DNA of 42,527 bases. Origin: Candidatus Uhrbacteria bacterium. GTDB taxonomy: Bacteria; Patescibacteriota; Patescibacteriia; UBA9934; GWF2-40-263. Made by a program: the position numbers and the translations under genes. Below are positions 7,266 to 31,502 of the stretch, piece by piece (within the stretch, counting starts at the first letter, position 1; each line of letters opens with the position of its first letter). The notes under the pieces are model-generated. The model was not told the origin of the DNA and did not search any database. It worked only from the letters and a program-made list of their open reading frames with translations. The DNA lies in assembly GCA_003523645.1 (NCBI GenBank), contig DOFP01000007.1, positions 1-42,527 of the forward strand. Direction: 5' to 3'.

Positions 7266-7363
7266 ATTTTAAATATATCGTTGTTGTCGTTTGACAAATG
7301 TGTTTATTTTTGGTAACAAAAGCTCATTCGTCGGACTTTAACAATAGAGAGAAGGGGAAAACA

Positions 7364-8167
7364 ATGGACATTATCATCGGTCAAGAAATTGGTGAATATC
7401 GCACTGAATCCCTTGTTGCGCGTGGAACAAATTCAACCATTTATAGAGGCACTCATCTTCTCATGGGAGAGGAAGTTTGTCTCAAGCGGTATGACCTTGA
7501 CATAAAGCCTGCAATTCCGATTGGGGAAGCGGATGTTTTGTCACGGTTGCAACATACGGAGATTCCAAAATTTCGGAATCTTCTTTCGTTAAAAGATGAT
7601 TCTTATGTGGTTGTCACGCATTTCGTTTCCGGTTCCCCATTGGGTCAAGCCGTGCAAAAGCACGGAAATATGGATCCGGAAATCGTGGCATCATTCTTGG
7701 AGAGAATGTTGCATTTGCTCAGATATATGCATGTAGATCAGAGATGTGTGCATGGAGACATCAAGCCAGAGCATATTTTGGCAAGGACTGATCATTCGAT
7801 TACGCTTGTTGGATTCGGCGTTGCGGAATTTTCTTCTGGAAATTGGGAAAAGAATCGAGGGTGGACAGACTTGTTCGCTCCACCAGAACAAGTTGAGGGT
7901 CGTCCGCTTGTTCCACAGATGGATCTTTACGCACTTGGAATGAGTATGGTGTATCTGCTCTGTGGTGGAAACGAGGAACAATTTAAGAATGGAGAAATTC
8001 CGGACGAAGTCCCCGACCCTATGGGACGATTCCTCTCTCGTTTGGTCATGAAGGATCCTGCCAAACGTTTGAACTGGACGCAGATGGATCTTTTCAAGGA
8101 GTGGGTGGAGATCCGTTTCGAGTGTTTCAAGAGGTCGACGACAGAAGGAAAACTACTCTTTCTTTGA
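7364..8167 (+). CDS. Ser/Thr protein-kinase-fold protein (kinase-like; DFG replaced by GFG)
   Basis: RBS GAGAAGGGGAAAAcaATG. Beta3 Lys in VCLKRY, alphaC Glu in EADVLSRL, catalytic loop HGDIKPEHIL (HRD-like with Asp retained), VGFGVAEF in place of DFG, APE-like FAPPEQ. Paralogous to the C-terminus of 25696-27423. Confidence 0.75.
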   Translation: MDIIIGQEIGEYRTESLVARGTNSTIYRGTHLLMGEEVCLKRYDLDIKPAIPIGEADVLSRLQHTEIPKFRNLLSLKDDSYVVVTHFVSGSPLGQAVQKHGNMDPEIVASFLERMLHLLRYMHVDQRCVHGDIKPEHILARTDHSITLVGFGVAEFSSGNWEKNRGWTDLFAPPEQVEGRPLVPQMDLYALGMSMVYLLCGGNEEQFKNGEIPDEVPDPMGRFLSRLVMKDPAKRLNWTQMDLFKEWVEIRFECFKRSTTEGKLLFL

Positions 8168-8296: not shown

Positions 8297-9313
8297 GTGT
8301 CGCGAGGAGGAACTGATTATGACCGTGACGTGTCGGATCGGTCCATGCGAACGAGTAGTGGCTTTACCACAGTCGCAGAGGAAGCGATGGCAACACGACA
8401 ATGGTTCGACCCTGCTCTGTTGCCAAAAGGGAGAGTGATCAAGACACTTTGCAAGAGCCCGATCGCTCTTCCATTTGATGTAACCGGATCCTTGGGGGGT
8501 CTCGCCAAGATCACCTATGACAAAATGCCCATGACTGCCGGAGAACTCAAGAAGCGTTCCTATCTTCAGGACTGTCAGATTTGTCCGATCGCGGTCGGAG
8601 ATGTTGTTTCCGACAGAGGACCGCTCCAGATCGGGGAATTCGTCGTTCCGCGGGAACTTGACAGTTATCTTCAACGCCTTTGGCTCGAAGGGGGAGGTGG
8701 TCGTCAAGGATATGAGTCCTATGAATTCGTCGCCTATTTCCTTGCATACCATTGCGATATTCCAGAGGCCGACACACCATTCGTCATTTTTATAGGTGAT
8801 GAACGGTTCCGGGAGGACCTTCATAGAAATGCGCTTCAAGCGTATTTCGGAGGTATTGAGCATGAAGACATGAATGCTTTCAAAGTGTTTGCCGACCTCA
8901 GGAGAAAGTTCAAGAACAATGTATTTCTGATTCACCGATATTACGATGACATGTGTACGGATAAAGAAGTCATTGACCAGTGGTCAGGAGTTCTTGGAGC
9001 CGATCACGTGATCAATCTCGGACACGGAAACGACACAGCTGTTGCAGACGTCATGCTCGGCATCTTTGCCCTGATGGGCGGGACACGAACTCTGGATCAG
9101 TATCTGGAAGATATGCGGGAACGCGGTCAGGATCAGACGCGTCTTGCCTTTGTTCGTAGGGCTCTGTCTGTTCTGAAGCCGCCGTCCTCAATCCAGAAAA
9201 AAGAGGAAGATGCAGATCAGTCGCAGCAGGTATTGGCGGCGGAAGAGAAGCAGAAAAGTCCGTCCCGCAAGAAGGGAAAATCCGTCTTCGATTCCTCGAA
9301 TTGGGACGTCTGA
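8297..9313 (+). CDS. von Willebrand factor A (vWA/MIDAS) domain protein, locus-1 copy
   Basis: GTG start after AAGGAAGGAG. MIDAS-like DVTGSLGG, GGGG loop and YEFVAYFLAYH. Collinear with 27442-28452 (DVSGSMGF, GGGGG, PEYALYWAATH). Confidence 0.75.
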   Translation: MSRGGTDYDRDVSDRSMRTSSGFTTVAEEAMATRQWFDPALLPKGRVIKTLCKSPIALPFDVTGSLGGLAKITYDKMPMTAGELKKRSYLQDCQICPIAVGDVVSDRGPLQIGEFVVPRELDSYLQRLWLEGGGGRQGYESYEFVAYFLAYHCDIPEADTPFVIFIGDERFREDLHRNALQAYFGGIEHEDMNAFKVFADLRRKFKNNVFLIHRYYDDMCTDKEVIDQWSGVLGADHVINLGHGNDTAVADVMLGIFALMGGTRTLDQYLEDMRERGQDQTRLAFVRRALSVLKPPSSIQKKEEDADQSQQVLAAEEKQKSPSRKKGKSVFDSSNWDV

Positions 9314-9416: not shown

Positions 9417-10811
9417 ATGAATCATATCATTGGTCGCGGGATTGGACTCGGAGATGAGGGAAAGGGAAAGATCATAGCGGCCATCGGACGGAAACTTGGC
9501 ATTCGGACAGGTATACGCGACACTGGAGCCAATCAAGCCGTTCATCACCTTCCAGGACCTAATGGTATTTGGCATGGGTTTGCGCAATTTTGTTCCCATT
9601 CCTTTCAGAATGACGCGTGGACATTCCTCGCGCGGGGTATGGCGGTTGAGCTTGAGGCACTTGTGCGTGAGGCGGAAGTGCTGGTGACCAAAGGAGTCGT
9701 TGATCCTATTCGACGGGTTGTGATCGATGACCAGTGTGCGATTGTGACACCCATGCACAAAATGGTCGGACGTATGGAGGAATTGATTCGTAGGCGTGGT
9801 TCGTGCGGTATGGGCGCAGGAAGAACAATTCGCGATCGGGAGGCAGGAAAAGGAATTCGAGTTTCACATGTTCTGGACGGATCCGTTCGAGATCGGTTGC
9901 GGGAAATGGTGACAGAAACCATAGCCGAGGCGCGACAGTTACTTGAACAACATCCGACCGATGATATGCGTGCTGAATTTTCCTATTTCATTCATCGGTG
10001 TAATCCGGACATGCTGGCCGAAACCTATGAACATATTCTTGCGTATTCTGGCGTACTGGTAGACCATGATCGTCGGTTATTTCTGCAGCGCATCCAGGAG
10101 GAACGGGTATTTTTCGAGGGGGCACATGGAACTTTGTTGGATGTCCGGTTCGGATTCCATCCGTATGTGACTCAGTCCAAGACCACGTGGCAACATATCG
10201 AGGAGCTTGTCAGTCCTCAAATATCCTTGAAAAAACTTGGGATCTCGAGGTCTTATAGTCTTCGATATGGCATGGGACCTCTCATAACAAAAGACCCTAT
10301 CCTTTCGAAACATCTTCAGGATTCACGTAATCCTGAAGATTCTTGGCAGGGGTCAGTACACATTGGATGGCTTGACCTTCCGATGTGGAGATATGGAATT
10401 CTGTTAAACGATCGACTCGATGGTATTGCCCTTACTTGTCTTGACCACCTAACTGGGTATCCAAGCATTCGAGTATGTACGTCCTATTTTTATGATGGAA
10501 AGCAGGACTCGCTCGATACATTCTTTGAATGGACGCGCACCAAACAAGGAACAGCCGAGATCCTCGGTTTCAAGAAGCCAGAACTACCATTCGAGAGCGA
10601 AGAACGCACGCGGATTCTTCATCAATGTAGGCCTGGTAAGTGGATTGAATTTCCGGGGTGGAACAAGGACATCCGACAAGTAAGACGGGTGCAAGATCTA
10701 CCGAAAGCCGCCCGCAACTATGTTGACTTTCTTGAAAGCTGGGCAGGATTTGCTCTGCCCATTCGGATCATTTCGGTTGGTCCGGATGTTGAAAGCTCAA
10801 TTTTTATCTGA
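9417..10811 (+). CDS. Adenylosuccinate synthetase (PurA)-family protein, highly divergent, locus-1 copy
   Basis: RBS GGAGGaaagATG. PurA P-loop GLGDEGKGKI, GANQAVHH (cf. GGHNAGHT), FFEGAHGTLLDVRFGFHPYVTQSKTT (cf. PurA [25 protein letters not shown]), SYSLRYGMGPLITKD (cf. AYSTRVGAGPFPTEL), LTCLDHL (cf. LTKLDVL). Confidence 0.8.
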   Translation: MNHIIGRGIGLGDEGKGKIIAAIGRKLGIRTGIRDTGANQAVHHLPGPNGIWHGFAQFCSHSFQNDAWTFLARGMAVELEALVREAEVLVTKGVVDPIRRVVIDDQCAIVTPMHKMVGRMEELIRRRGSCGMGAGRTIRDREAGKGIRVSHVLDGSVRDRLREMVTETIAEARQLLEQHPTDDMRAEFSYFIHRCNPDMLAETYEHILAYSGVLVDHDRRLFLQRIQEERVFFEGAHGTLLDVRFGFHPYVTQSKTTWQHIEELVSPQISLKKLGISRSYSLRYGMGPLITKDPILSKHLQDSRNPEDSWQGSVHIGWLDLPMWRYGILLNDRLDGIALTCLDHLTGYPSIRVCTSYFYDGKQDSLDTFFEWTRTKQGTAEILGFKKPELPFESEERTRILHQCRPGKWIEFPGWNKDIRQVRRVQDLPKAARNYVDFLESWAGFALPIRIISVGPDVESSIFI

Positions 10812-10877: not shown

Positions 10878-11411
10878 TTAGGGTCCGGCACAGAGCGGGG
10901 GTTCTTGATTCCGGAATTTGGTACGCAATATGAGAAGATTTTTTTTCTCCTGCTCATATGCTTCCAATTCCACGGGATCTGTCGGTAGAACAAAGATGAT
11001 TGTGTTGCAGTGTTGACAATACTGGTACGTTTTTTTCTCTCTCGGATCCGCAAGAAGCGGTCGTGAGAAACTTATGACATTGTAGACGAGCTCCTCGAGT
11101 TCGTTTCTCCAGGATTCTGGGATCATCGTGTTTTGTTGGAAGGAAGCGAACCCGCAGACAGGACACTGTTCAGGGCAGACATCCGGGTTCTGGAACGAAG
11201 TAAGAGCTTGTTCCCGAATTTGTTCCGGTGTTTTTCCACGATGTTCAGCTTCGAAGGATAGGGAGCATTTATTACATCCCAACCGTTCGAGAACTTCATA
11301 AGAATACCCTGTTTGCGTGCATCGGGTATTCCAGATTCCGATGAGCCGTCCTTCTTTACATGAAGGACAAGAATGGTTCATTAGTAAACCTTTCAATTGT
11401 TCCAGACTCAT
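10878..11411 (-). CDS. Cys-rich zinc-ribbon protein (177 aa), function unknown
   Basis: RBS AGGAGGaaacccc-ATG. Multiple CxxC pairs (CPSCKEG, CNKCS, CPEQCPVCG, CQHCN). Confidence 0.6.
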   Translation of the reverse strand: MSLEQLKGLLMNHSCPSCKEGRLIGIWNTRCTQTGYSYEVLERLGCNKCSLSFEAEHRGKTPEQIREQALTSFQNPDVCPEQCPVCGFASFQQNTMIPESWRNELEELVYNVISFSRPLLADPREKKTYQYCQHCNTIIFVLPTDPVELEAYEQEKKNLLILRTKFRNQEPPLCAGP

Positions 11412-12103: not shown

Positions 12104-13390
12104 TTGAGGAAAAGTTTTGTGTCAGTTATGCTACGGAGCATGTCATTTTCTCTCTTCTCTTCTCGTATACGTTTGCCGCGAACAGTGACATTTCTCATTG
12201 TCCTTGTTTGTATTTTAACATCGTTTGTTTTTGGATTGTTTCTTGGACGCCAGCAAGGAGTTCGTCTGGCTGTTCCGTCTGGAGAAGGTCGTGTGTTGGG
12301 TCAAGGGGGGAAAACAATGACGGCATTGGAAAAAGATGTTGACTTCCAATTATTTTGGAATGTTTGGAATTTGGTAAAAGAAACATACTATCAACAACCT
12401 GTTTCTGATAAATCGCTCTTTTATGGAGCGGTCATGGGAATGGTTGCAGGATTACAGGATCCATATTCTGTGTTCTTTGATCCAACAGCTGCAGAAGAAT
12501 TCAATAAAGATTTGACAGGAAGTTTTGAAGGAGTCGGAGCGGAAATCGGTATCAAAAATCATCAGCTGCAAATCGTGGCTCCATTGCCAGGAAGTCCAGC
12601 TGAAGCAGCTGGGATAAAATCAGGTGATAAGATTTTTTTGATTGACGGAAAAGAGACAGCCAACATGACCGTAGAAGAAGCCATATCTTTGATTCGCGGA
12701 GAACGAGGGACAACGGTCGTTTTGACAATTTCTCGAGACGGATTAAAAGATGTCATGGAAGTTTCGGTTGTTCGCGATACGATAAAAGTGAATAGTGTAC
12801 GTGCGGAAATGCGTGAAGACGGCATCGCAGTTATTCACATGTATTTATTTAATGAAGACACGGAACCGTTGTTTACCGCGGCTGTGAATGAAAGTCTGAG
12901 TCATGGAGCACGAGGAATCATTCTTGACTTACGGAGCAACCCAGGTGGACTTTTAACAGCTGCGATTGATGTGGCAAGTGCATGGATTGGTAAAGATCCG
13001 GTTGTCATTCAACGCGTTCGTGATCGACAAGATGTGTTTCCCGGATCTGTCTCTGCTCGTTTGCAGGGAATTCCAACCGTGGTGCTTGTAAACGGCGGTT
13101 CCGCTTCCGGTTCGGAAATTGTTGCCGGAGCTTTGCAAGATTATGGTTATGCAACACTTATCGGAGAACAAACATTTGGAAAAGGATCTGTCCAGGATTA
13201 TCGCGAGTTAGATGACGGGTCTGCAGTAAAAATTACCATTGCCGAATGGTTGACTCCATATGGACGTTCGATTAATCATGTGGGAATTGCTCCGGATGTG
13301 CAGGTTCCGTTTACGGAAGAGGATTTTAAAAATGGACGTGATCCACAATTTGATACAGCCATTGAATGGCTTCAAAAGGCTATCAAATAA
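12104..13390 (+). CDS. ctpA: Carboxyl-terminal processing protease (S41 family, PDZ domain), membrane-anchored
   Basis: N-terminal TM. PDZ segment GSPAEAAGIKSGDKIFLIDG. S41 motifs GIILDLRSNPGGLL and LVNGGSASGSEIVAGALQD...GEQTFGKGSVQ. Confidence 0.9.
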   Translation: MRKSFVSVMLRSMSFSLFSSRIRLPRTVTFLIVLVCILTSFVFGLFLGRQQGVRLAVPSGEGRVLGQGGKTMTALEKDVDFQLFWNVWNLVKETYYQQPVSDKSLFYGAVMGMVAGLQDPYSVFFDPTAAEEFNKDLTGSFEGVGAEIGIKNHQLQIVAPLPGSPAEAAGIKSGDKIFLIDGKETANMTVEEAISLIRGERGTTVVLTISRDGLKDVMEVSVVRDTIKVNSVRAEMREDGIAVIHMYLFNEDTEPLFTAAVNESLSHGARGIILDLRSNPGGLLTAAIDVASAWIGKDPVVIQRVRDRQDVFPGSVSARLQGIPTVVLVNGGSASGSEIVAGALQDYGYATLIGEQTFGKGSVQDYRELDDGSAVKITIAEWLTPYGRSINHVGIAPDVQVPFTEEDFKNGRDPQFDTAIEWLQKAIK

Positions 13391-13473
13391 TGTCTTGTAT
13401 GAATCATGTGCCTTCTCCGGAATCTATTCCACGGTCTCGACCGTCACGTTCAAGTTCAAAACGTGCAAAAAAT

Positions 13474-13920
13474 ATGGTTCATGAAGTATCAGCGGGCGGG
13501 CTTGTATTCAAACGAACTCCAAAAGGAATTTTGTTTGCCATGATGAAAGATTCGTATGGAAAATGGACGTTCCCAAAAGGACATGTAGAATCTGGAGAAG
13601 AAAAAGAAGAGGCTGCTGCCCGGGAAAGCATGGAAGAACTGGGTCTAGAACAAATTCGACTTCTCGAATCATTAGGACAAATTACGATTTGGTTTCGTGA
13701 TCGTTTTGTAAAAAAAGGAGCGCTGGTTCACAAAGACATTCATTATTTTTTATTTGCGACTCTTCCGGACACAGAATTGTTTCCTCAAACATCTGAACAT
13801 ATCCAGGAAGCTGCATGGATTCCAGCAAAGGAATTATTGGAACGATCTTTTTATCCGGATCTTGTTCCTGTGATCAAACGTGCGCTCATGTACGTGCGTA
13901 TTCACGGAGGAACCGTTTAA
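13474..13920 (+). CDS. Nudix hydrolase
   Basis: Nudix box GHVESGEEKEEAAARESMEELGLE. Start uncertain (in-frame alternatives at 13366 and 13393 overlap the ctpA end). Confidence 0.8.
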   Translation: MVHEVSAGGLVFKRTPKGILFAMMKDSYGKWTFPKGHVESGEEKEEAAARESMEELGLEQIRLLESLGQITIWFRDRFVKKGALVHKDIHYFLFATLPDTELFPQTSEHIQEAAWIPAKELLERSFYPDLVPVIKRALMYVRIHGGTV

Positions 13921-25695: not shown

Positions 25696-27423
25696 ATGAC
25701 TCTTGATCCTAAGATGTATCTGTCAATTTCTGTGCCTGAAAATTTGAGGAATGGACTCATTGCTATGATGGTTCGTCATTTCCTCTTGAAACAGGTCATC
25801 GGAAACGAATACGTAGCATCTCAAGCCGCACGTGAAATTATGACCGCTTTGTACGGTTTTCATTCAACGTTCGCTCAGATTCAAAGCACGTCAAAAGAAG
25901 ATTTTGAAAAAGCAACTCAAAAAGCCGGTATTTCTGGTATCCCTGTGGCTGGTTTCAAAGAACTCCCGGACGTGTGGCATCTGGTGAATCCTGAAACTCC
26001 GATGTGTTCCCATTGTGGGGATGTACCGCTTTCGAATAATGGATCCTTCATTCAGAATCTGGTTGTTGGGTCTAAGTGTCCCTTCTGTCATGTGGGAGAG
26101 TTTGTTCTCATTCCTATGACTTTGAAAAAGATTACTTGGACTGACGGCAGACTTGTGGATCCGTCTATGAGAGAAGATTATCAGTTCATCACAGGAGAAC
26201 AAATTCCTCTGGATGATGACTTGATTATGGATTGGGTCAATGTTCGTATTCAGCCAGATCTTAAACAAGCATTGGTAGAAGCACAGGTTTCCATATATGG
26301 ATTTCTTGCTTATGCCAACTTGGTTCGCAACGCGTTCAGCGGTCGCAAGGAATCCGAGGAAGGATTGTGCAAGGCTGTTGGTTGGTTGCTTGAGGATCCG
26401 GAAGTATGCAACCTGCCGGTTTCTATTATGGCTGAAGAGGCTATGAAAGCCCGGCAGTATGTGGAAGAAAGAGAAGTGACGAACATGCCACGGATTTTGA
26501 AGTCCACGAGCGTTATCCTTCCTGTATCTTCTGTTGTGGCAACTGTTGTGAATCCGTTTGCTCCGATGAATGAACGAGATCCAACATCCTATATACGGAC
26601 TCGTCTACTCGCATCTGGAGATATGGCTGATATTTATCTTGGCCATCTCAACGATCCATTCGCGGACAAACAGGAGACAGTGATCATCAAGGTGTACCGA
26701 GATGCAGAAGACACTGGGATGGCTCGTAACGAGGCACAAACTTTGGAGCGTTTATACGGAAGTGCTGAGACTGAGAAAGCTGAAGGTTTCCTTCATGGAT
26801 TTCCCAAGGTTCTTGCATACGGACCAGTAACGGATTCTGACGGAGTTGTGCACGAATGTAATGTGTTTTCGTACACTCCTGGCTACATGACTTTGGAAGA
26901 AGTTTGTCGTGACGATCATCGGGTCGATATTCGAACAGGTGTGTGGATGTTCAACCGTATTCTCGAAATGCTTGGTTGGATTCACCAGCACGGCATTATT
27001 CTTGGATCGGTTCTTCCATCCCATATCCTTGCCCAGCTTGATGAACACTGGATCGTTTTTCTTGGATGGCCCTATGCAGTTCATGAGCCAGAGAAAACCG
27101 GTGCACGCATTCTCGCGGTCAGTCAGGCGTACGAGTCTTTTTATCCGGAAAGTGTGTTTCGAAAGAAACCGCCGTCTCCGGCAATGGATATCTCGATGGC
27201 TGCGCGGTGTGTGATCCAGGTTGTAGGTGGAGATCCGATCACGGGGAAATTGCCTCGTGGAGAAGATCCGCTATTTGAGACGATTTTGAAGACAGCTGCC
27301 GGTCTTCATGGTTCTGTTCCGTTCAAGAACGCTTGGCAGTTGCATGAGGCGTTCGGAGAAGTTGCGCGTTCCGTTTTAGGGCCGCGTAAGTTTCATCCAT
27401 CCCGGGTGTTCAAAAAAACCTGA
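25696..27423 (+). CDS. Zinc-ribbon plus pseudokinase-domain protein (575 aa), locus-2 copy of the kinase-fold component
   Basis: RBS AAAGGAGaaatcATG. N-terminal region has CSHCG...CPFCH. C-terminal protein-kinase fold: VIIKVY (beta3 K), EAQTLERL (alphaC E), HQHGIILGSVLPSHIL (HRD Asp lost), FLGWPYA (DFG lost). Collinear with 7364-8167. Confidence 0.75.
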   Translation: MTLDPKMYLSISVPENLRNGLIAMMVRHFLLKQVIGNEYVASQAAREIMTALYGFHSTFAQIQSTSKEDFEKATQKAGISGIPVAGFKELPDVWHLVNPETPMCSHCGDVPLSNNGSFIQNLVVGSKCPFCHVGEFVLIPMTLKKITWTDGRLVDPSMREDYQFITGEQIPLDDDLIMDWVNVRIQPDLKQALVEAQVSIYGFLAYANLVRNAFSGRKESEEGLCKAVGWLLEDPEVCNLPVSIMAEEAMKARQYVEEREVTNMPRILKSTSVILPVSSVVATVVNPFAPMNERDPTSYIRTRLLASGDMADIYLGHLNDPFADKQETVIIKVYRDAEDTGMARNEAQTLERLYGSAETEKAEGFLHGFPKVLAYGPVTDSDGVVHECNVFSYTPGYMTLEEVCRDDHRVDIRTGVWMFNRILEMLGWIHQHGIILGSVLPSHILAQLDEHWIVFLGWPYAVHEPEKTGARILAVSQAYESFYPESVFRKKPPSPAMDISMAARCVIQVVGGDPITGKLPRGEDPLFETILKTAAGLHGSVPFKNAWQLHEAFGEVARSVLGPRKFHPSRVFKKT

Positions 27424-27441: not shown

Positions 27442-28452
27442 ATGGCAAAAGGATGGAATACATCGACCCATCAAGAGGTTGAGAAGAAGATGCAGCAGGT
27501 CAAGGAAACAGGCGGAAGTGTGCCAAATGATGGGACAAATCCATACCTGGTTCATCCGCTTATGGATCCTTTGAAGATCAAGAGTGGCATAAGGGAAAGC
27601 TGTGATAGTGCGGAGCAGCTTTTATCGCTTGCCATTATTTTTCTCATGGATGTGAGTGGTTCCATGGGGTTTGTTCCTGAACAACTCAGAACTCGCTATC
27701 TTTGTGAGCTCATGAAGTTTTTGCTTGGCGGGAAACTGGTTGTGGATCCACAGATCATGTTCGCCGCATTTGCGGACGTTGCAGATCGGTGCTTCTTGCA
27801 GGTTGGACAGTTCGAACTCGGAACTGAAATGCACGGGGATCTTTCTCGTTTGCGTATTGGTGGTGGCGGAGGAAGTGCAATGGCGCACGAAGCGCCGGAA
27901 TATGCTCTCTATTGGGCAGCGACCCATACCAAGATTGATTGCTTCGAAAAGCGAAGAAAAAAAGGAATTCTCGTCATAACGACCGATGAAATGCCGAATG
28001 ATAAACTCAAGAAAGAGTATGTCAGGCGTTTTATTGGAGATGGATTAGAAAACGACTTCACGATCGAACAGGTCATTGCACTTGTCCGACAGAAGTACGA
28101 CATTTTCTGTCTGTACACCCATACAGGTTCGTATGGCAGCATGGACAAAGAGATCCGAGCCAGGTGGGTGGAGATCCTCGGATCCGAATATGTTTTCGAC
28201 TTTTACCAGTCTGAAGATATTTGTGCTCTGGTCGGATCCATTATTGGATTGCGAGAGGAAATGGTGAATAATCTAGATGATCTCCGTAATCGTCTCCGTG
28301 GTCTTGAGACTTCGGAGGAAACCATTACTCGGGTGTTGCGGACGGTTTATGGATACGCGACTCTTCTTGGAAGAGGTCAGGTCAATGGGGTGACCCAGAA
28401 GGCTGACGCTCCCGTTGAGAAATCGAAAACAACCGGCAATCGTCGGTTGTGA
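27442..28452 (+). CDS. vWA/MIDAS domain protein, locus-2 copy
   Basis: RBS AAAGGAGAGattgaaATG. Canonical MIDAS IIFLMDVSGSMGF, GGGGGS loop, ILVITTDEMPND. Confidence 0.85.
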   Translation: MAKGWNTSTHQEVEKKMQQVKETGGSVPNDGTNPYLVHPLMDPLKIKSGIRESCDSAEQLLSLAIIFLMDVSGSMGFVPEQLRTRYLCELMKFLLGGKLVVDPQIMFAAFADVADRCFLQVGQFELGTEMHGDLSRLRIGGGGGSAMAHEAPEYALYWAATHTKIDCFEKRRKKGILVITTDEMPNDKLKKEYVRRFIGDGLENDFTIEQVIALVRQKYDIFCLYTHTGSYGSMDKEIRARWVEILGSEYVFDFYQSEDICALVGSIIGLREEMVNNLDDLRNRLRGLETSEETITRVLRTVYGYATLLGRGQVNGVTQKADAPVEKSKTTGNRRL

Positions 28453-28525: not shown

Positions 28526-29959
28526 ATGAACGATTTAGAGTTTGGTCGAACATCCTACCTGATTCGCGATTTGATATTTGGAGATAGTGGAAAGGGAACT
28601 ATCGGAGAGTTTCTCACATGGTGGCTTGATCAATTCGCGCCAATTTGGTCAAAGGTTCATACAGTCATTCGGACCGAGGGTGGTCATCAGGCCATACACA
28701 ACAATATCCTTCCCGATGGACGACATCATGGATTTTCCCAGTTTGGGTCGGGAAGTCTCACGTCTCCGATTTGGACACACCATGCAAAGGGAATGATGGT
28801 CGAGCCACTGCACGCACTTGACGAGGGAAAGGATTTGCAGCATTTGGGCGTGCGGGATATCTTCGGCCGTTTGACTGTGAGTCGCGATGTCCGAATAGTG
28901 ACGCCGTTTCAACAGGCAGCCAACCGTCTTCGCGAATATGCTCGAGGAGTCGGACGGCACGGAAGTTGCGGAAAAGGGATTGGTGAAACTGCATCTGATG
29001 CACTTGCGATCGGAACCGATGCTCTTTATGCAAGAGATCTGATGGATTCTGCAATCCTTCGGGAAAAGTTGTCTCAGATTCAGGCATACAAGCTGGCTCA
29101 GCTCGCAGATCTGATATATCGATTTGGAGATGACAAAGCAATCTCGGCAGAGATCGACTGGCTCACAAATACGGCAGCTTCATCGATTCTCGTCGCGTAT
29201 CTTGGCGAGTTCGTCGAACGCGTGAAGATCGTGGAGAATGCACACATTGGTGGAATTCTTTCCAGGCCGGGTTCGGTGATTTTTGAGGGAGCGCAAGGAG
29301 TTCTCATTGATGAGTGGCGCGGGTTTCACCCGTACACGACATGGAGTACCTGTACGTTTGACAACGCGCTCGAACTTCTCCGCGAACACCAGTATGACGG
29401 CAGGATTGTCCGGATCGGAGTTGTCCGCGCGTATGCAACACGACACGGTGCCGGACCATTTATGACAGAAGATCCATTTCTTACCAATGCACTTCCGGAC
29501 ACATATAACGTGACGGATGTTTGGCAACAGACGTTCCGTGTCGGCTGGTTCGATGCTGTGGCTGCTCGATACGCAATTGCAGCATGTGGTCAGGTAGATG
29601 CATTGGCTGTCACTTGTCTTGATCGAATGCGTGATTTATCTCAGTGGCTCATCTGCACCGGATATGAATTATCTGAAGATGATTCGAATGCGGCAAAGTT
29701 TTTTGAACTGGATCCGCAAAATCCGAGGATTGCGCGTAATATTCGGCTTGGACCTCACAAAGATCTCGTTTATCAAGAGACCTTGACTGAGCAGTTGAAG
29801 CGTGTGAAGCCGATATATGAAGTCTCTGCCAATGCAGCAGACTTTGGCCAGCGTGCAGAGCAGCATCTTGCACGAATCGAATCTGAACTCGGCGTGCCGG
29901 TCGCTATCACATCCTACGGTCCAACCGTTCTGGACAAGCGAATGGTACGCCCCGTTTAA
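28526..29959 (+). CDS. Adenylosuccinate synthetase (PurA)-family protein, highly divergent, locus-2 copy
   Basis: RBS GGAGGaatcATG. Eroded P-loop FGDSGKGTIG, GGHQAIHN, GSCGKGIGET, IFEGAQGVLIDEWRGFHPYTTWSTCT, RAYATRHGAGPFMTED, VTCLDRM. Matches PurA motifs in order. Confidence 0.8.
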   Translation: MNDLEFGRTSYLIRDLIFGDSGKGTIGEFLTWWLDQFAPIWSKVHTVIRTEGGHQAIHNNILPDGRHHGFSQFGSGSLTSPIWTHHAKGMMVEPLHALDEGKDLQHLGVRDIFGRLTVSRDVRIVTPFQQAANRLREYARGVGRHGSCGKGIGETASDALAIGTDALYARDLMDSAILREKLSQIQAYKLAQLADLIYRFGDDKAISAEIDWLTNTAASSILVAYLGEFVERVKIVENAHIGGILSRPGSVIFEGAQGVLIDEWRGFHPYTTWSTCTFDNALELLREHQYDGRIVRIGVVRAYATRHGAGPFMTEDPFLTNALPDTYNVTDVWQQTFRVGWFDAVAARYAIAACGQVDALAVTCLDRMRDLSQWLICTGYELSEDDSNAAKFFELDPQNPRIARNIRLGPHKDLVYQETLTEQLKRVKPIYEVSANAADFGQRAEQHLARIESELGVPVAITSYGPTVLDKRMVRPV

Positions 29960-30049: not shown

Positions 30050-30808
30050 TTATTTCGGAAAAGGAAGAGCATAAACAGCATCTTCCAAATATTGTTTTAC
30101 TCGATCAATTTCCAAATCACCTTGGAGAGTCCGGAGTTCTGATTCCGTATCGATATTCACTCTTGGAAAGAGTTTTCCAAAAGGTTTTATACGCTCGATT
30201 GTCTTCAATCCGAGTTTACCTGCGATTCCGATGCCGATGTTGGGGAATCGACTCCGGACTTCAGAGATATATGGACCAAGTTTTTTGATATCGAGCATTT
30301 TTCCCTTTGACCCATCTAGATCAAGGAGAATATCTGTCGGAGCATCGCCGTACTCTCCGACTTTTTGTGCGAGTTGTACAGGATCACTATGCACCTGTTC
30401 AAACGCATGATGTCCGACTTGGAGAATAAGTCGGAAGTGAGGAAATCGATTTCGATAGGCACTGAGAACAGTTGGGCGTGGCCAAGCAATGTTCATCTGG
30501 AAACCTTCGAAGTGTGGTCCAGCCAGAGTCGTGATCCGACACATTTGAAGAAACAAGGTGTCAAGATCTGGTGTCGTATAATGAACAAGGTTGAGTGTGG
30601 CTGGATCGTCAGGAAAAAGTTCGACCAGACGATGAATCAGTGGATACTTTTTTGGGTTTCCCGGTGGTTTCCCAAACAATGTTTTCATGTTCGCGAGCAC
30701 TCCGATCATGAGCCGTCGTTTTGTCTCAAGTGTTTTGAAGTGTTTAAGCACTTGGTTTACTTCTGTCCGACTCATAAAGCCGGTGAAGCCGATGTATGGA
30801 GTTTTCAT
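30050..30808 (-). CDS. TIM-barrel protein resembling phosphoribosylanthranilate isomerase (TrpF-like), tentative
   Basis: RBS AGGAGGtatca-ATG. IGFTGF (cf. KICGIT), ILLDLDGSKGKMLD (cf. LLD..GGSGKTFDW), C-terminal VNIDTESE...VKQYLEDA resembles the PRAI C-terminus. Weak call. Confidence 0.4.
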   Translation of the reverse strand: MKTPYIGFTGFMSRTEVNQVLKHFKTLETKRRLMIGVLANMKTLFGKPPGNPKKYPLIHRLVELFPDDPATLNLVHYTTPDLDTLFLQMCRITTLAGPHFEGFQMNIAWPRPTVLSAYRNRFPHFRLILQVGHHAFEQVHSDPVQLAQKVGEYGDAPTDILLDLDGSKGKMLDIKKLGPYISEVRSRFPNIGIGIAGKLGLKTIERIKPFGKLFPRVNIDTESELRTLQGDLEIDRVKQYLEDAVYALPFPK

Positions 30809-30905
30809 TGATACCTCCTTTTATGGTTGAAGTTTCTAGAATGATCCTAACTTGTTTAAAAAGGATGTCAACAATTTTTGCTTGTCGGATGCGTTTGTTT
30901 TGCTT

Positions 30906-31502
30906 ATGATGGGGTATGTTCACATTTTTATGAAACTTCCTTTGATTTTTCGAAACATGCAAAAACAGTTTGTGAATGCTCAACAAGGGCGTTCAGCTGT
31001 GATACATGCATCAAATGATGCACTTAATCGTTCAAAACGTGCGATTTTTGCATTACATCGCGGAAACGCACAAACAGCGACAACACTGTTAGAAGAGGCT
31101 AAAATCTGTTTTCAAGATGCAGAACGACGATTTCGCACTAGTCCGGAATTAAAACATGAAGGTTCTTATCAGGCAGCACGTGAAGAGTATACGGAAGCAA
31201 TGATATTTGCGGATTATCTTCGTGGTGGACGCTTTTCCATATCAGAGCCACGGATTGCAGATCCGCAGGTGTTTCTTGCAGGTCTTTCTGATGCCACAGG
31301 TGAGATTGTTCGGTATGCTATTCGTCAAGCAACGCATGGAAATCGAGAAGAAGTCACACGTGCTCACGAGACCATTGAAATGATTATCCATTTTCTTTTG
31401 GAACTTGATTTGACCGGATACCTTCGTCAGAAGTTTGATCAAGGAAAAAAGAATTTGCGTACCATAGAAGATATCCTTTACGACTTAAGTCTCAAATCCT
31501 AA
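30906..31502 (+). CDS. Translin-family protein (putative)
   Basis: All-helical ~198-aa protein. C-terminus LRQKFDQGKKNLRTIEDILYDLSLKS matches the translin signature (human LRKRYDGLKYDVKKVEEVVYDLSI). Start uncertain (ORF track begins at a TTG at 30852). Confidence 0.55.
   Translation: MMGYVHIFMKLPLIFRNMQKQFVNAQQGRSAVIHASNDALNRSKRAIFALHRGNAQTATTLLEEAKICFQDAERRFRTSPELKHEGSYQAAREEYTEAMIFADYLRGGRFSISEPRIADPQVFLAGLSDATGEIVRYAIRQATHGNREEVTRAHETIEMIIHFLLELDLTGYLRQKFDQGKKNLRTIEDILYDLSLKS

Follow-up and report, generated by a model that had tools for sequence, protein, structure and literature searches.

A PurA-superfamily clade that has lost the aspartate loop, encoded in a mobile cassette with a vWA protein and a predicted pseudokinase

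Two copies of a three-gene cassette lie in contig DOFP01000007.1 of a Candidatus Uhrbacteria bacterium (assembly GCA_003523645.1), whose 42,527 nucleotides, read on the forward strand, make up the window analysed here. In both copies the genes are co-directional and run in the order K-V-P: a protein with a Hanks-type kinase fold (K), a von Willebrand factor A (vWA)-like protein (V) and, as the last gene, a protein with the fold of the adenylosuccinate synthetase PurA (P). Locus 1 comprises K1 (7298..8167, + strand; 289 amino acids, aa), a Hanks-type kinase domain devoid of an N-terminal module (Pfam Pkinase, 1.7e-27); V1 (8297..9313, +; 338 aa), a divergent homologue of V2; and P1 (9417..10811, +; 464 aa; Pfam PF00709, 4e-67), which falls in a second sub-clade of a variant PurA family. 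Locus 2 comprises K2 (25696..27423, +; 575 aa), with an N-terminal zinc ribbon and a C-terminal predicted Hanks-type pseudokinase domain; V2 (27442..28452, +; 336 aa), with a vWA domain and a C-terminal helical region; and P2 (28526..29959, +; 477 aa; PF00709, 1e-56), a member of the variant clade. The translation of 28526-29959 begins ...LIRDLIFGDSGKGTIGEFL and that of 9417-10811 begins MNHIIGRGIGLGDEGKGKII. An earlier sequence-only reading of this DNA had stated that the window holds neither a canonical purA nor a purB and that both P copies sit beside vWA genes. Both statements held. The only PurA-type P-loops of the window are those of P1 and P2, both scoring below the PurA cut-offs, and no fumarate-lyase (PurB) signature was found in any of its six frames, nor any PurB among the larger open reading frames (ORFs) scanned, which include GTP cyclohydrolase II, CTP synthase, MraY, FtsW, MurD and a major-vault-protein homologue. 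The vWA neighbours were recognized through AlphaFold and Foldseek for V2 and through homology to V2 for V1.

P1 and P2 share 30% identity, and their PF00709 matches span nearly the whole length of each protein. Their scores against the two NCBIfam PurA equivalogs remained low, with 131.5 and 151.2 bits for P2 and 178.4 and 178.2 bits for P1, against cut-offs of 395.6 (TIGR00184) and 402 (NF002223). The AlphaFold model of P2 (predicted local distance difference test, pLDDT, 94.1) matched bacterial PurA structures (E. coli, B. anthracis and others) in Foldseek with template modelling (TM) scores of 0.76-0.85, and PurZ with a TM score of 0.56 at 15% identity. A neighbour-joining tree with 100 bootstraps was built from 66 sequences: P1, P2, 40 sampled relatives, the copy of phage Catera, two plasmid copies and 21 canonical PurAs. 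The variant sequences, phage and plasmid copies included, formed a clade without any canonical PurA (bootstrap 100/100). Within the PurA superfamily, P1 and P2 are members of a third clade, distinct from PurA and PurZ. Public annotations call the P proteins 'adenylosuccinate synthetase' and their phage homologues '2-aminooxy adenylosuccinate synthetase' (RefSeq, PHROG). A 2026 survey of viral PF00709 proteins assigned its sequences to PurA or to PurZ (PMC12884076); by our own arithmetic from its totals, about 365 of the 767 sequences belong to neither and are undiscussed there.

We mapped residues by aligning P1 and P2 with E. coli PurA (EC 6.3.4.4; PF00709; structures 1ADE and 1CG0), whose numbering is used throughout, together with 118 relatives of P2 and 143 of P1, the latter at 38-42% identity and drawn from a search of 1.84 billion representatives. 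In liganded H. pylori adenylosuccinate synthetase, inosine monophosphate (IMP) is held by D13, N38, G127, T129, T239, the backbone of V273, R303 and R143 of the partner subunit; a sulphate mimicking a carboxylate is bound at the equivalents of R303 and R305, and K331 lines the guanine pocket (PMC11571797). Most of the catalytic apparatus is kept in the variant proteins. The P-loop of P2, GDSGKGT (28580-28600, +; within FGDSGKGTIG, aa 18-27), retains G12, D13, G15, K16 and G17 and differs from GDEGKGK by E14S and K18T, while P1 carries the full motif (9450-9470, +, aa 12-18; within GLGDEGKGKI). Asp13 is present in P1, P2 and 257 of the 261 relatives, and His41 in both copies (GGHQAIHN, 28679-28702, + in P2; GANQAVHH, 9525-9548, + in P1). 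Together with K16, Asp311, Asp333 and Ser414, these two residues are invariant or nearly so across the relatives. Gln224 is Q in 249/261, retained in P2 (FEGAQG, 29282-29299, +, aa 253-258) and replaced by His in P1 (FEGAHG, 10113-10130, +, aa 233-238). The Arg272-x-Gly274-x-Gly276-Pro277 element is retained in the P clades (TRHGAGP, 29438-29458, +, aa 305-311 in P2; LRYGMGP, 10260-10280, + in P1). Asp333 is found in VTCLD of P2 (29609-29623, +, aa 362-366; LTCLD in P1, 10431-10445, +, aa 339-343) and Ser414 in TSYGPT (29909-29926, +; ISVGPD in P1, 10770-10787, +). Since the fold and these residues (Gln224 only in P2) are shared with PurA, P probably performs the GTP-dependent phosphoryl transfer of PurA to a lactam oxygen.

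The substrate side of the pocket contrasted with this conservation. Three of the four contacts of the IMP 5′-phosphate clamp are lost or changed in P1 and P2 (N38Q, T129C and no equivalent of Arg143); Thr239 alone persists, in each copy and each clade. N38Q is invariant and T129C occurs in 217/261 relatives (GSCGKG, 28961-28987, + in P2; GSCGMG, 9798-9824, + in P1). The HPY element reads HPYTTWST in P2 (29327-29350, +, aa 268-275) and HPYVTQSK in P1 (+, aa 248-255); S240 is W in the P2 clade and K in the P1 clade. V273 is His in both clades, with Tyr in P1 itself, and K331 is Cys in P1 and P2 and C, H or N across the clades. Above all, the L-aspartate loop T300-T301-G-R303-R304-R305 is gone in both copies: P2 has VWQQTFRVGWFD (29519-29554, +) in place of TTGRRRRTGWLD, and P1 has SWQGSVHIGWLD (10341-10376, +), which read VWQQTF(R) and SWQGSV(H), respectively, at the loop itself. 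The clade consensus there is x-W-Q-x-x-F-R, with W-Q invariant at T300/T301 and F or M at R305 among the 261 relatives; of the loop arginines, the fourth (R306) alone is retained in the clades. Two alignments placed the one-residue gap of this loop differently, and the Thr pair and R303-R305 were lost either way. As aligned, another set of residues, no less conserved, stands where PurA has its aspartate site and part of its clamp for the IMP phosphate, and because these replacement residues are near-invariant, the pocket looks re-specified rather than decayed.

The sequence-only reading had correctly placed both P-loop strings and the FEGAQG/FEGAHG, HPY and C-LD elements of the two copies; GAGP, which it assigned to both, is present in P2, and P1 reads GMGP. 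Its proposal of an eroded P-loop in locus 2 was not borne out: Asp13, Lys16 and the glycines are kept, and E14S and K18T are the conserved state of the clade (A, Q, S or C at position 14 in 112/118 relatives; S or T at position 18 in 115/118). The idea of a repurposed nucleotide enzyme was supported, for a reason other than the one given: the change affects the aspartate loop and the 5′-phosphate clamp of both copies, not the P-loop. Full conservation of the PurA catalytic and substrate-binding residues, which together with a purB elsewhere in the genome it would have taken as a sign of ordinary purine salvage, is found in neither copy. A change of nucleoside triphosphate, also suggested for the locus-2 copy, is not indicated, because the guanine-specifying Asp333 and Ser414 are invariant in the 261 relatives, though Lys331 is replaced by Cys. 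Finally, of the two copies, that of locus 1 is the more aberrant. P2 equals the clade consensus at every key position, on which ground we rejected the possibility of a decaying, pseudogene-like copy, whereas P1 departs from its own clade at Q224H, H273Y, F305V and R306H, positions conserved in 132 to 140 of the 143 relatives except for F305 (F in 112, M in 19). The unusual copy is therefore P1, in spite of its 'normal' P-loop, and it may have an altered or reduced activity, as it has drifted at clade-invariant active-site positions. P2 appears to be a typical member and is probably active.

V2 gave no Pfam or NCBIfam match. Its AlphaFold model (pLDDT 88.9) nevertheless retrieved integrin I-domains, vWF-A, SpaC and NorD from the PDB with a Foldseek probability of 1.0. 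The metal ion-dependent adhesion site (MIDAS) motif is DVSGS in V2 (aa 70-74, 27649-27663) and DVTGS in V1 (aa 61-65, 8477-8491). Among 46 homologues D70, G73, S74, D182 and E183 are invariant, the MIDAS motif follows D-x-[ST]-G-S and T163 is conserved; V1 keeps every invariant column of this alignment, matches V2 by BLASTP at E = 3e-15 and scores 142 bits on the hidden Markov model (HMM) of the V family. Both proteins also match the PHROG family phrog_2971 (function unknown), V2 at 3e-35 and V1 at 5e-27. As judged from the model, V is a true vWA-fold protein with an intact MIDAS motif. The arrangement recalls MoxR-vWA, NorQ/NorD and CbbQ/CbbO, in which a MIDAS vWA protein is encoded beside a P-loop NTPase with which it probably works, NorD being itself among the structural matches of V. 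It differs from them in that the NTPase of the cassette has the SIMIBI-class PurA fold instead of being an AAA+ ATPase, and in having a pseudokinase as obligate third partner.

K1 and K2 are both members of the K family by jackhmmer and HMM searches. K2 gave no Pfam match, and a search of a large protein database returned K2 alone; against PHROG it matched phrog_3043 'kinase' at 4e-21. A profile of the K family, made from neighbouring ORFs, retrieved PAK, PknB, StkP and PknA among PDB sequences at E about 1e-17. The zinc ribbon of K2 (CxxC...CxxC) occupies aa 104-131 (26005-26088). Its ATP-binding Lys is kept (VIIK, 26680-26697), the catalytic loop LGSVLPSH (27001-27024) has neither the Asp of HRD nor the Asn, and LGW stands for DFG (27058-27069). 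In K1 the Lys is again kept (VCLK, 7475-7492); HGDIKPEH, its catalytic loop (7751-7774), has the Asp but shows His for Asn, and VGFG stands for DFG (7805-7819). Across 164 K proteins, HGA occupies the HRD position in 115 and a true HRD or HGD in 7, the catalytic-loop Asn is replaced by His in 130, and the ATP-binding Lys is kept in 140. K is thus a Hanks-type pseudokinase as predicted from its motifs. An N-terminal HPD motif, typical of J-domains, was found in 97 of the 164; two proteins of this type scored 28.5 and 25.0 bits against Pfam DnaJ (cut-off 27.8). Other K proteins, such as K2, start with a zinc ribbon.

A vWA protein and a Hanks-type kinase-fold protein are also paired in a bacterial operon known as the TerY-P triad, which, as reported by Anantharaman and co-workers in 2012, joins the vWA protein TerY to a Ser/Thr kinase and a PP2C phosphatase. 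The present cassette differs from it by the lack of a recurrent PP2C phosphatase gene, by a K without the catalytic Asp, by a V that Pfam VWA models miss and by its PurA-like third gene. Identity with the triad was rejected, no phosphatase gene recurring beside the cassette.

The distribution of the cassette was examined at 84 non-redundant genome loci, namely the best 80 of at least 590 from a scan with one genome per species, plus six found earlier. Genes were called at these loci from HMM matches, longest-ORF calling having given spurious antisense or over-long ORFs in high-GC genomes; apparent gene 'fusions' at two loci (L021 and L050) were such artefacts, and no fusion is claimed. In about 75 of the 84, the genes lie on one strand as K-V-P or as KVVP, VPK or VVPK, and almost every exception is truncated where its contig stops. 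Many V/P pairs show a 4-bp stop/start overlap. The cassette spans at least eight bacterial phyla. Its hosts include Uhrbacteria, Saccharibacteria and Paceibacterota of the Candidate Phyla Radiation (CPR); Ktedonobacterales, Anaerolineae and Oscillochloris trichoides DG6 among the Chloroflexota; Myxococcus (Myxococcota); Actinomadura, Spirillospora, Micromonospora and Planobispora (Actinomycetota); and Beta- and Gammaproteobacteria such as Massilia. It is present as well in Acidobacteriota and Planctomycetota (recorded to phylum). As a control, a metagenome scan with looser patterns was used to collect variant and canonical genes together. At loci with enough upstream sequence, V was nearby for 17 of 18 variant-signature genes, while V or K was nearby for 0 of 36 canonical purA genes (Fisher p = 3.8e-13). 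No P gene accompanied purine genes, and nearly all had V and K as neighbours. On one Anaerolineae contig, 2.8 kb separate K-V-P from a canonical purA; P is hence a paralogue of PurA and not its replacement.

Several CPR loci carry an unannotated gene of about 400-430 aa, without Pfam match, directly upstream of K and on the same strand (L003, 2862-4052; L011, 3811-5112; L013, 2350-3717; L056, 551-1795; L060, 4036-5244). The window lacks this gene, a possible fifth member of the cassette in particular lineages.

Outside chromosomes, the cassette was found on Rhodococcus megaplasmids as K-V-P-N (N being the NrtR-like gene described below), with R. jostii RHA1 pRHL1 matched by a V homologue, and on an Agrobacterium vitis plasmid. 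Homologues of P2 at 38% identity occur in 202 Mycobacterium phage records, mostly of the Bxz1-type cluster C1. In phage Catera, family HMMs identified gp249 as K (J-domain type, 338 bits), gp250 as V (299 bits) and gp252 as P (412 bits), just downstream of the lysis genes and terminase; K2, V2 and P2 match the same three PHROG families as the Catera proteins. Between V and P, Catera also has gp251 (L091, 5729-5995), an 88-aa ORF of PHROG phrog_3263 (function unknown), with no counterpart in the window. In IMG/VR, V lies beside P in 77 of 80 loci, with K as well in 65, and many of the contigs are 100-500 kb long. The cassette moves among chromosomes, plasmids and phages. Many of the IMG/VR contigs (L172-L251) reach 200-512 kb, and some have an NrtR-like gene; such contigs may derive from jumbo phages or be CPR fragments that were classified wrongly. 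One of them (L192) and metagenome locus L119 share a single 208-kb contig. Against PADLOC-DB v2, P and V had no match at E <= 0.1 and K matched generic kinase models only (PD-T4-6, mad6), so the cassette is not a catalogued defence system. Our literature searches found no description of a K-V-P cassette; a preprint on an oral-microbiome kinase proved to be unrelated.

N, the sole further gene that recurs beside the cassette, joins a Nudix domain to an NrtR winged helix (Pfam NrtR_WHD, 9.7e-26). It adjoins the cassette in 29 of the 84 genome loci, in five phyla and often inside the operon, and also at plasmid loci. CPR versions have a degenerate Nudix box, actinobacterial versions an intact one. 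The NrtR family senses ADP-ribose. At two Uhrbacteria loci the cassette lies between the NrtR gene and pncA, nadD/nadK, pncB and nadE, and ADP-ribosylglycohydrolase genes (PF03747; 5.5e-57 for a representative) were found within a few kb of N-K-V-P at one Anaerolineae and two Saccharibacteria loci (L022, 6873-7760; L038, 3724-4743; L060, 2016-3023). The NrtR partner suggests that ADP-ribose or an NAD-type nucleotide either switches the cassette or is the target of its action. In Massilia violaceinigra (L007, 16276-16851 and 6033-7010) a Band-7/SPFH gene is inserted between the NrtR-like gene and K, and a TerD gene lies about 6 kb downstream, past a transposase and a type VI secretion system immunity gene. 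The window itself has a stand-alone NUDIX hydrolase 2.5 kb downstream of locus 1 (13366-13920, +; Pfam 1.8e-20), without the NrtR winged helix and unmatched by the NrtR-like HMM.

Taken as a whole, P is most likely a GTP-driven ligase of the mobile K-V-P cassette that would use a nucleophile other than aspartate, a reading to which we give a probability of about 60%. We infer that P is not an adenylosuccinate synthetase. What it shares with PurA is the full-length fold, the P-loop Gly, Asp13 and Lys16, His41, Gln224 (in P2), Thr239, Arg272-x-Gly274, Asp311, Asp333 and Ser414. What sets it apart is W-Q-x-x-F for the aspartate loop, N38Q, T129C, the missing Arg143, V273H, S240W/K and K331C/H/N, besides its scores and its gene neighbourhood. 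In this reading, P would phosphorylate the oxygen of a lactam-type (purine-nucleotide-like) substrate with GTP, Asp13 acting as base and His41 as acid, and a nitrogen nucleophile other than aspartate would then displace the phosphate. P would work in a complex with V and K, where V would be an adaptor through its MIDAS site and K a nucleotide-binding, non-catalytic regulator whose J-domain versions would recruit Hsp70.

Several points weigh against this ligase reading. The substrate and nucleophile of P are deduced solely from the pattern of retained and missing PurA residues, and the residues presumed to line its pocket were assigned from an alignment in which gap placement varied. Use of GTP is likely, not certain, Lys331 of the guanine pocket being replaced by C, H or N. 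A physical interaction of K, V and P is suggested only by gene order and overlapping stop/start codons. N is absent from both loci of the window, the NrtR link concerning about one third of the genome loci, and some of the 'viral' IMG/VR contigs may be misclassified CPR genome fragments. Lastly, the conserved catalytic residues would also suit a switch that binds a nucleotide and hydrolyses GTP with no product formed.

In one alternative P is not a biosynthetic enzyme. It would sense GTP and a nucleotide, or serve as a switch by binding them, or be a futile GTPase dependent on IMP, and its conformation would be read by V and its pseudokinase or J-domain partner. Loss of the second-substrate site with the GTP and first-substrate core preserved would fit such a role, as would partners that are signalling or adaptor modules without obvious catalysis (a MIDAS vWA protein, a J-domain pseudokinase) and the intact ORF of P1 despite the loss of several clade-invariant residues. 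We consider it unlikely: W, Q, F and R of the replaced loop, as well as C129, H273 and W240/K240, are near-invariant over 35-50% sequence divergence, and a protein that only binds would not need the general base Asp13 and the general acid His41, which serve chemistry.

Rather doubtful is the proposal that P is a nucleotide-pool repair or counter-defence enzyme, with which phages would resist nucleotide-depleting immunity and bacteria or plasmids would maintain the same pools. It comes in two versions. In one, GTP would drive the re-amination of inosine nucleotides, the nitrogen coming from ammonia or from some donor other than aspartate. In the other, NAD+ would be re-formed from ADP-ribose and nicotinamide: the anomeric hydroxyl would be phosphorylated and the phosphate displaced by the ring nitrogen. 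The cassette does occur in lytic Mycobacterium phages and many large viral contigs, the NrtR-type regulator, the three ADP-ribosylglycohydrolase genes and the NAD-salvage operons of Uhrbacteria would agree with an NAD-related role, and an aromatic W/F pocket has taken the place of the dicarboxylate pocket with Arg143 of the 5′-phosphate clamp lost. The proposal is nonetheless entirely inferential and gives V and K no role; two thirds of the loci and the window lack the NrtR link, PADLOC holds no related system, and the anomeric carbon lies several angstroms from the O6 site of IMP in PurA. In its most complete and equally speculative form, K-V-P(-N) would be a mobile machine that uses GTP, and no aspartate, to rebuild a degraded nucleotide of the adenine or NAD type, under an ADP-ribose-sensing NrtR switch and vWA/pseudokinase control. 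If true, this would be a new nucleotide-pool repair route countering nucleotide-depleting immunity, from IMP/ITP to AMP/ATP or from ADP-ribose and nicotinamide to NAD+.

It is very improbable that P1 and P2 are ordinary, divergent adenylosuccinate synthetases converting IMP towards AMP for purine salvage in a reduced CPR genome, with coincidental neighbours. The full-length PF00709 match, PurA as best structural match, the retained Asp13, His41 and Lys16 and the public annotation would be explained in this manner. However, both proteins score under half of the equivalog cut-offs; neither copy has T300/T301 or R303-R305, Arg143 is missing and Cys stands at T129. The fully supported separate clade and the strict linkage to V (17/18 against 0/36) also argue against it, as do the contig that carries variant and canonical genes together, a coexistence that presumably extends to free-living Actinomadura, Myxococcus, Massilia and Rhodococcus, and the lack of a purB signature within the window.

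A PurZ-like enzyme making a modified purine (2-aminoadenine) DNA precursor, as the RefSeq and PHROG names of the phage homologues and a weak NCBIfam PurZ match might suggest, is hardly credible, since P1 and P2 keep the Asp13 that is Ser in 100% of phage PurZ sequences (PMC12884076), have lost the aspartate loop although PurZ still uses aspartate, and score 33.5 and 25.6 bits, respectively, against a cut-off of 300 (NF038379), with the low structural similarity given above. For these reasons PurZ membership was rejected. PurZ/PurZ0 (N6-succino-2-amino-2′-deoxyadenylate synthase of Z-genome phages) remains an instructive parallel as a phage-borne, repurposed member of the superfamily, illustrating that the fold tolerates a new substrate specificity, and it differs from P1 and P2 by its shorter length (about 340-370 aa). 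No datZ, mazZ or dpoZ was evident among the annotated ORFs of the window, no search having been aimed at these genes.

A third clade that lacks the aspartate site and keeps the GTP chemistry, as the residue pattern suggests, would predict a new reaction for a textbook enzyme fold. The cassette, set here within the known PurA family, is without described counterpart and systematically mis-annotated: hundreds of P genes bear the name adenylosuccinate synthetase or PurZ, leading to wrong calls in purine metabolism, especially where auxotrophy of CPR bacteria is deduced. Its spread over at least eight phyla, megaplasmids, phage Catera and large viral contigs, with a close P homologue in 202 Mycobacterium phage records, points to a widespread and unexplained function. 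Relatives are available in tractable systems: Bxz1/Catera-type phages of M. smegmatis, Rhodococcus jostii RHA1 (pRHL1), Agrobacterium vitis and Myxococcus.

Other genes of the window were noted around the two loci. Just after P1 and convergent to it, 10878-11411 (-) encodes a protein of 177 aa that is rich in cysteine, carries several zinc-ribbon-like CxxC pairs and gave no Pfam match. Downstream of locus 2 are a 252-aa protein without Pfam match (30050-30808, -) and a Translin-family protein marked by Pfam (30852-31502, +), with no evidence that either belongs to the cassette. Further along, 38439-41057 (+) encodes an 872-aa protein matching Pfam MVP_shoulder (6.6e-26) and Vault_3 (3.9e-8), a major-vault-protein homologue in a CPR (Uhrbacteria) genome.

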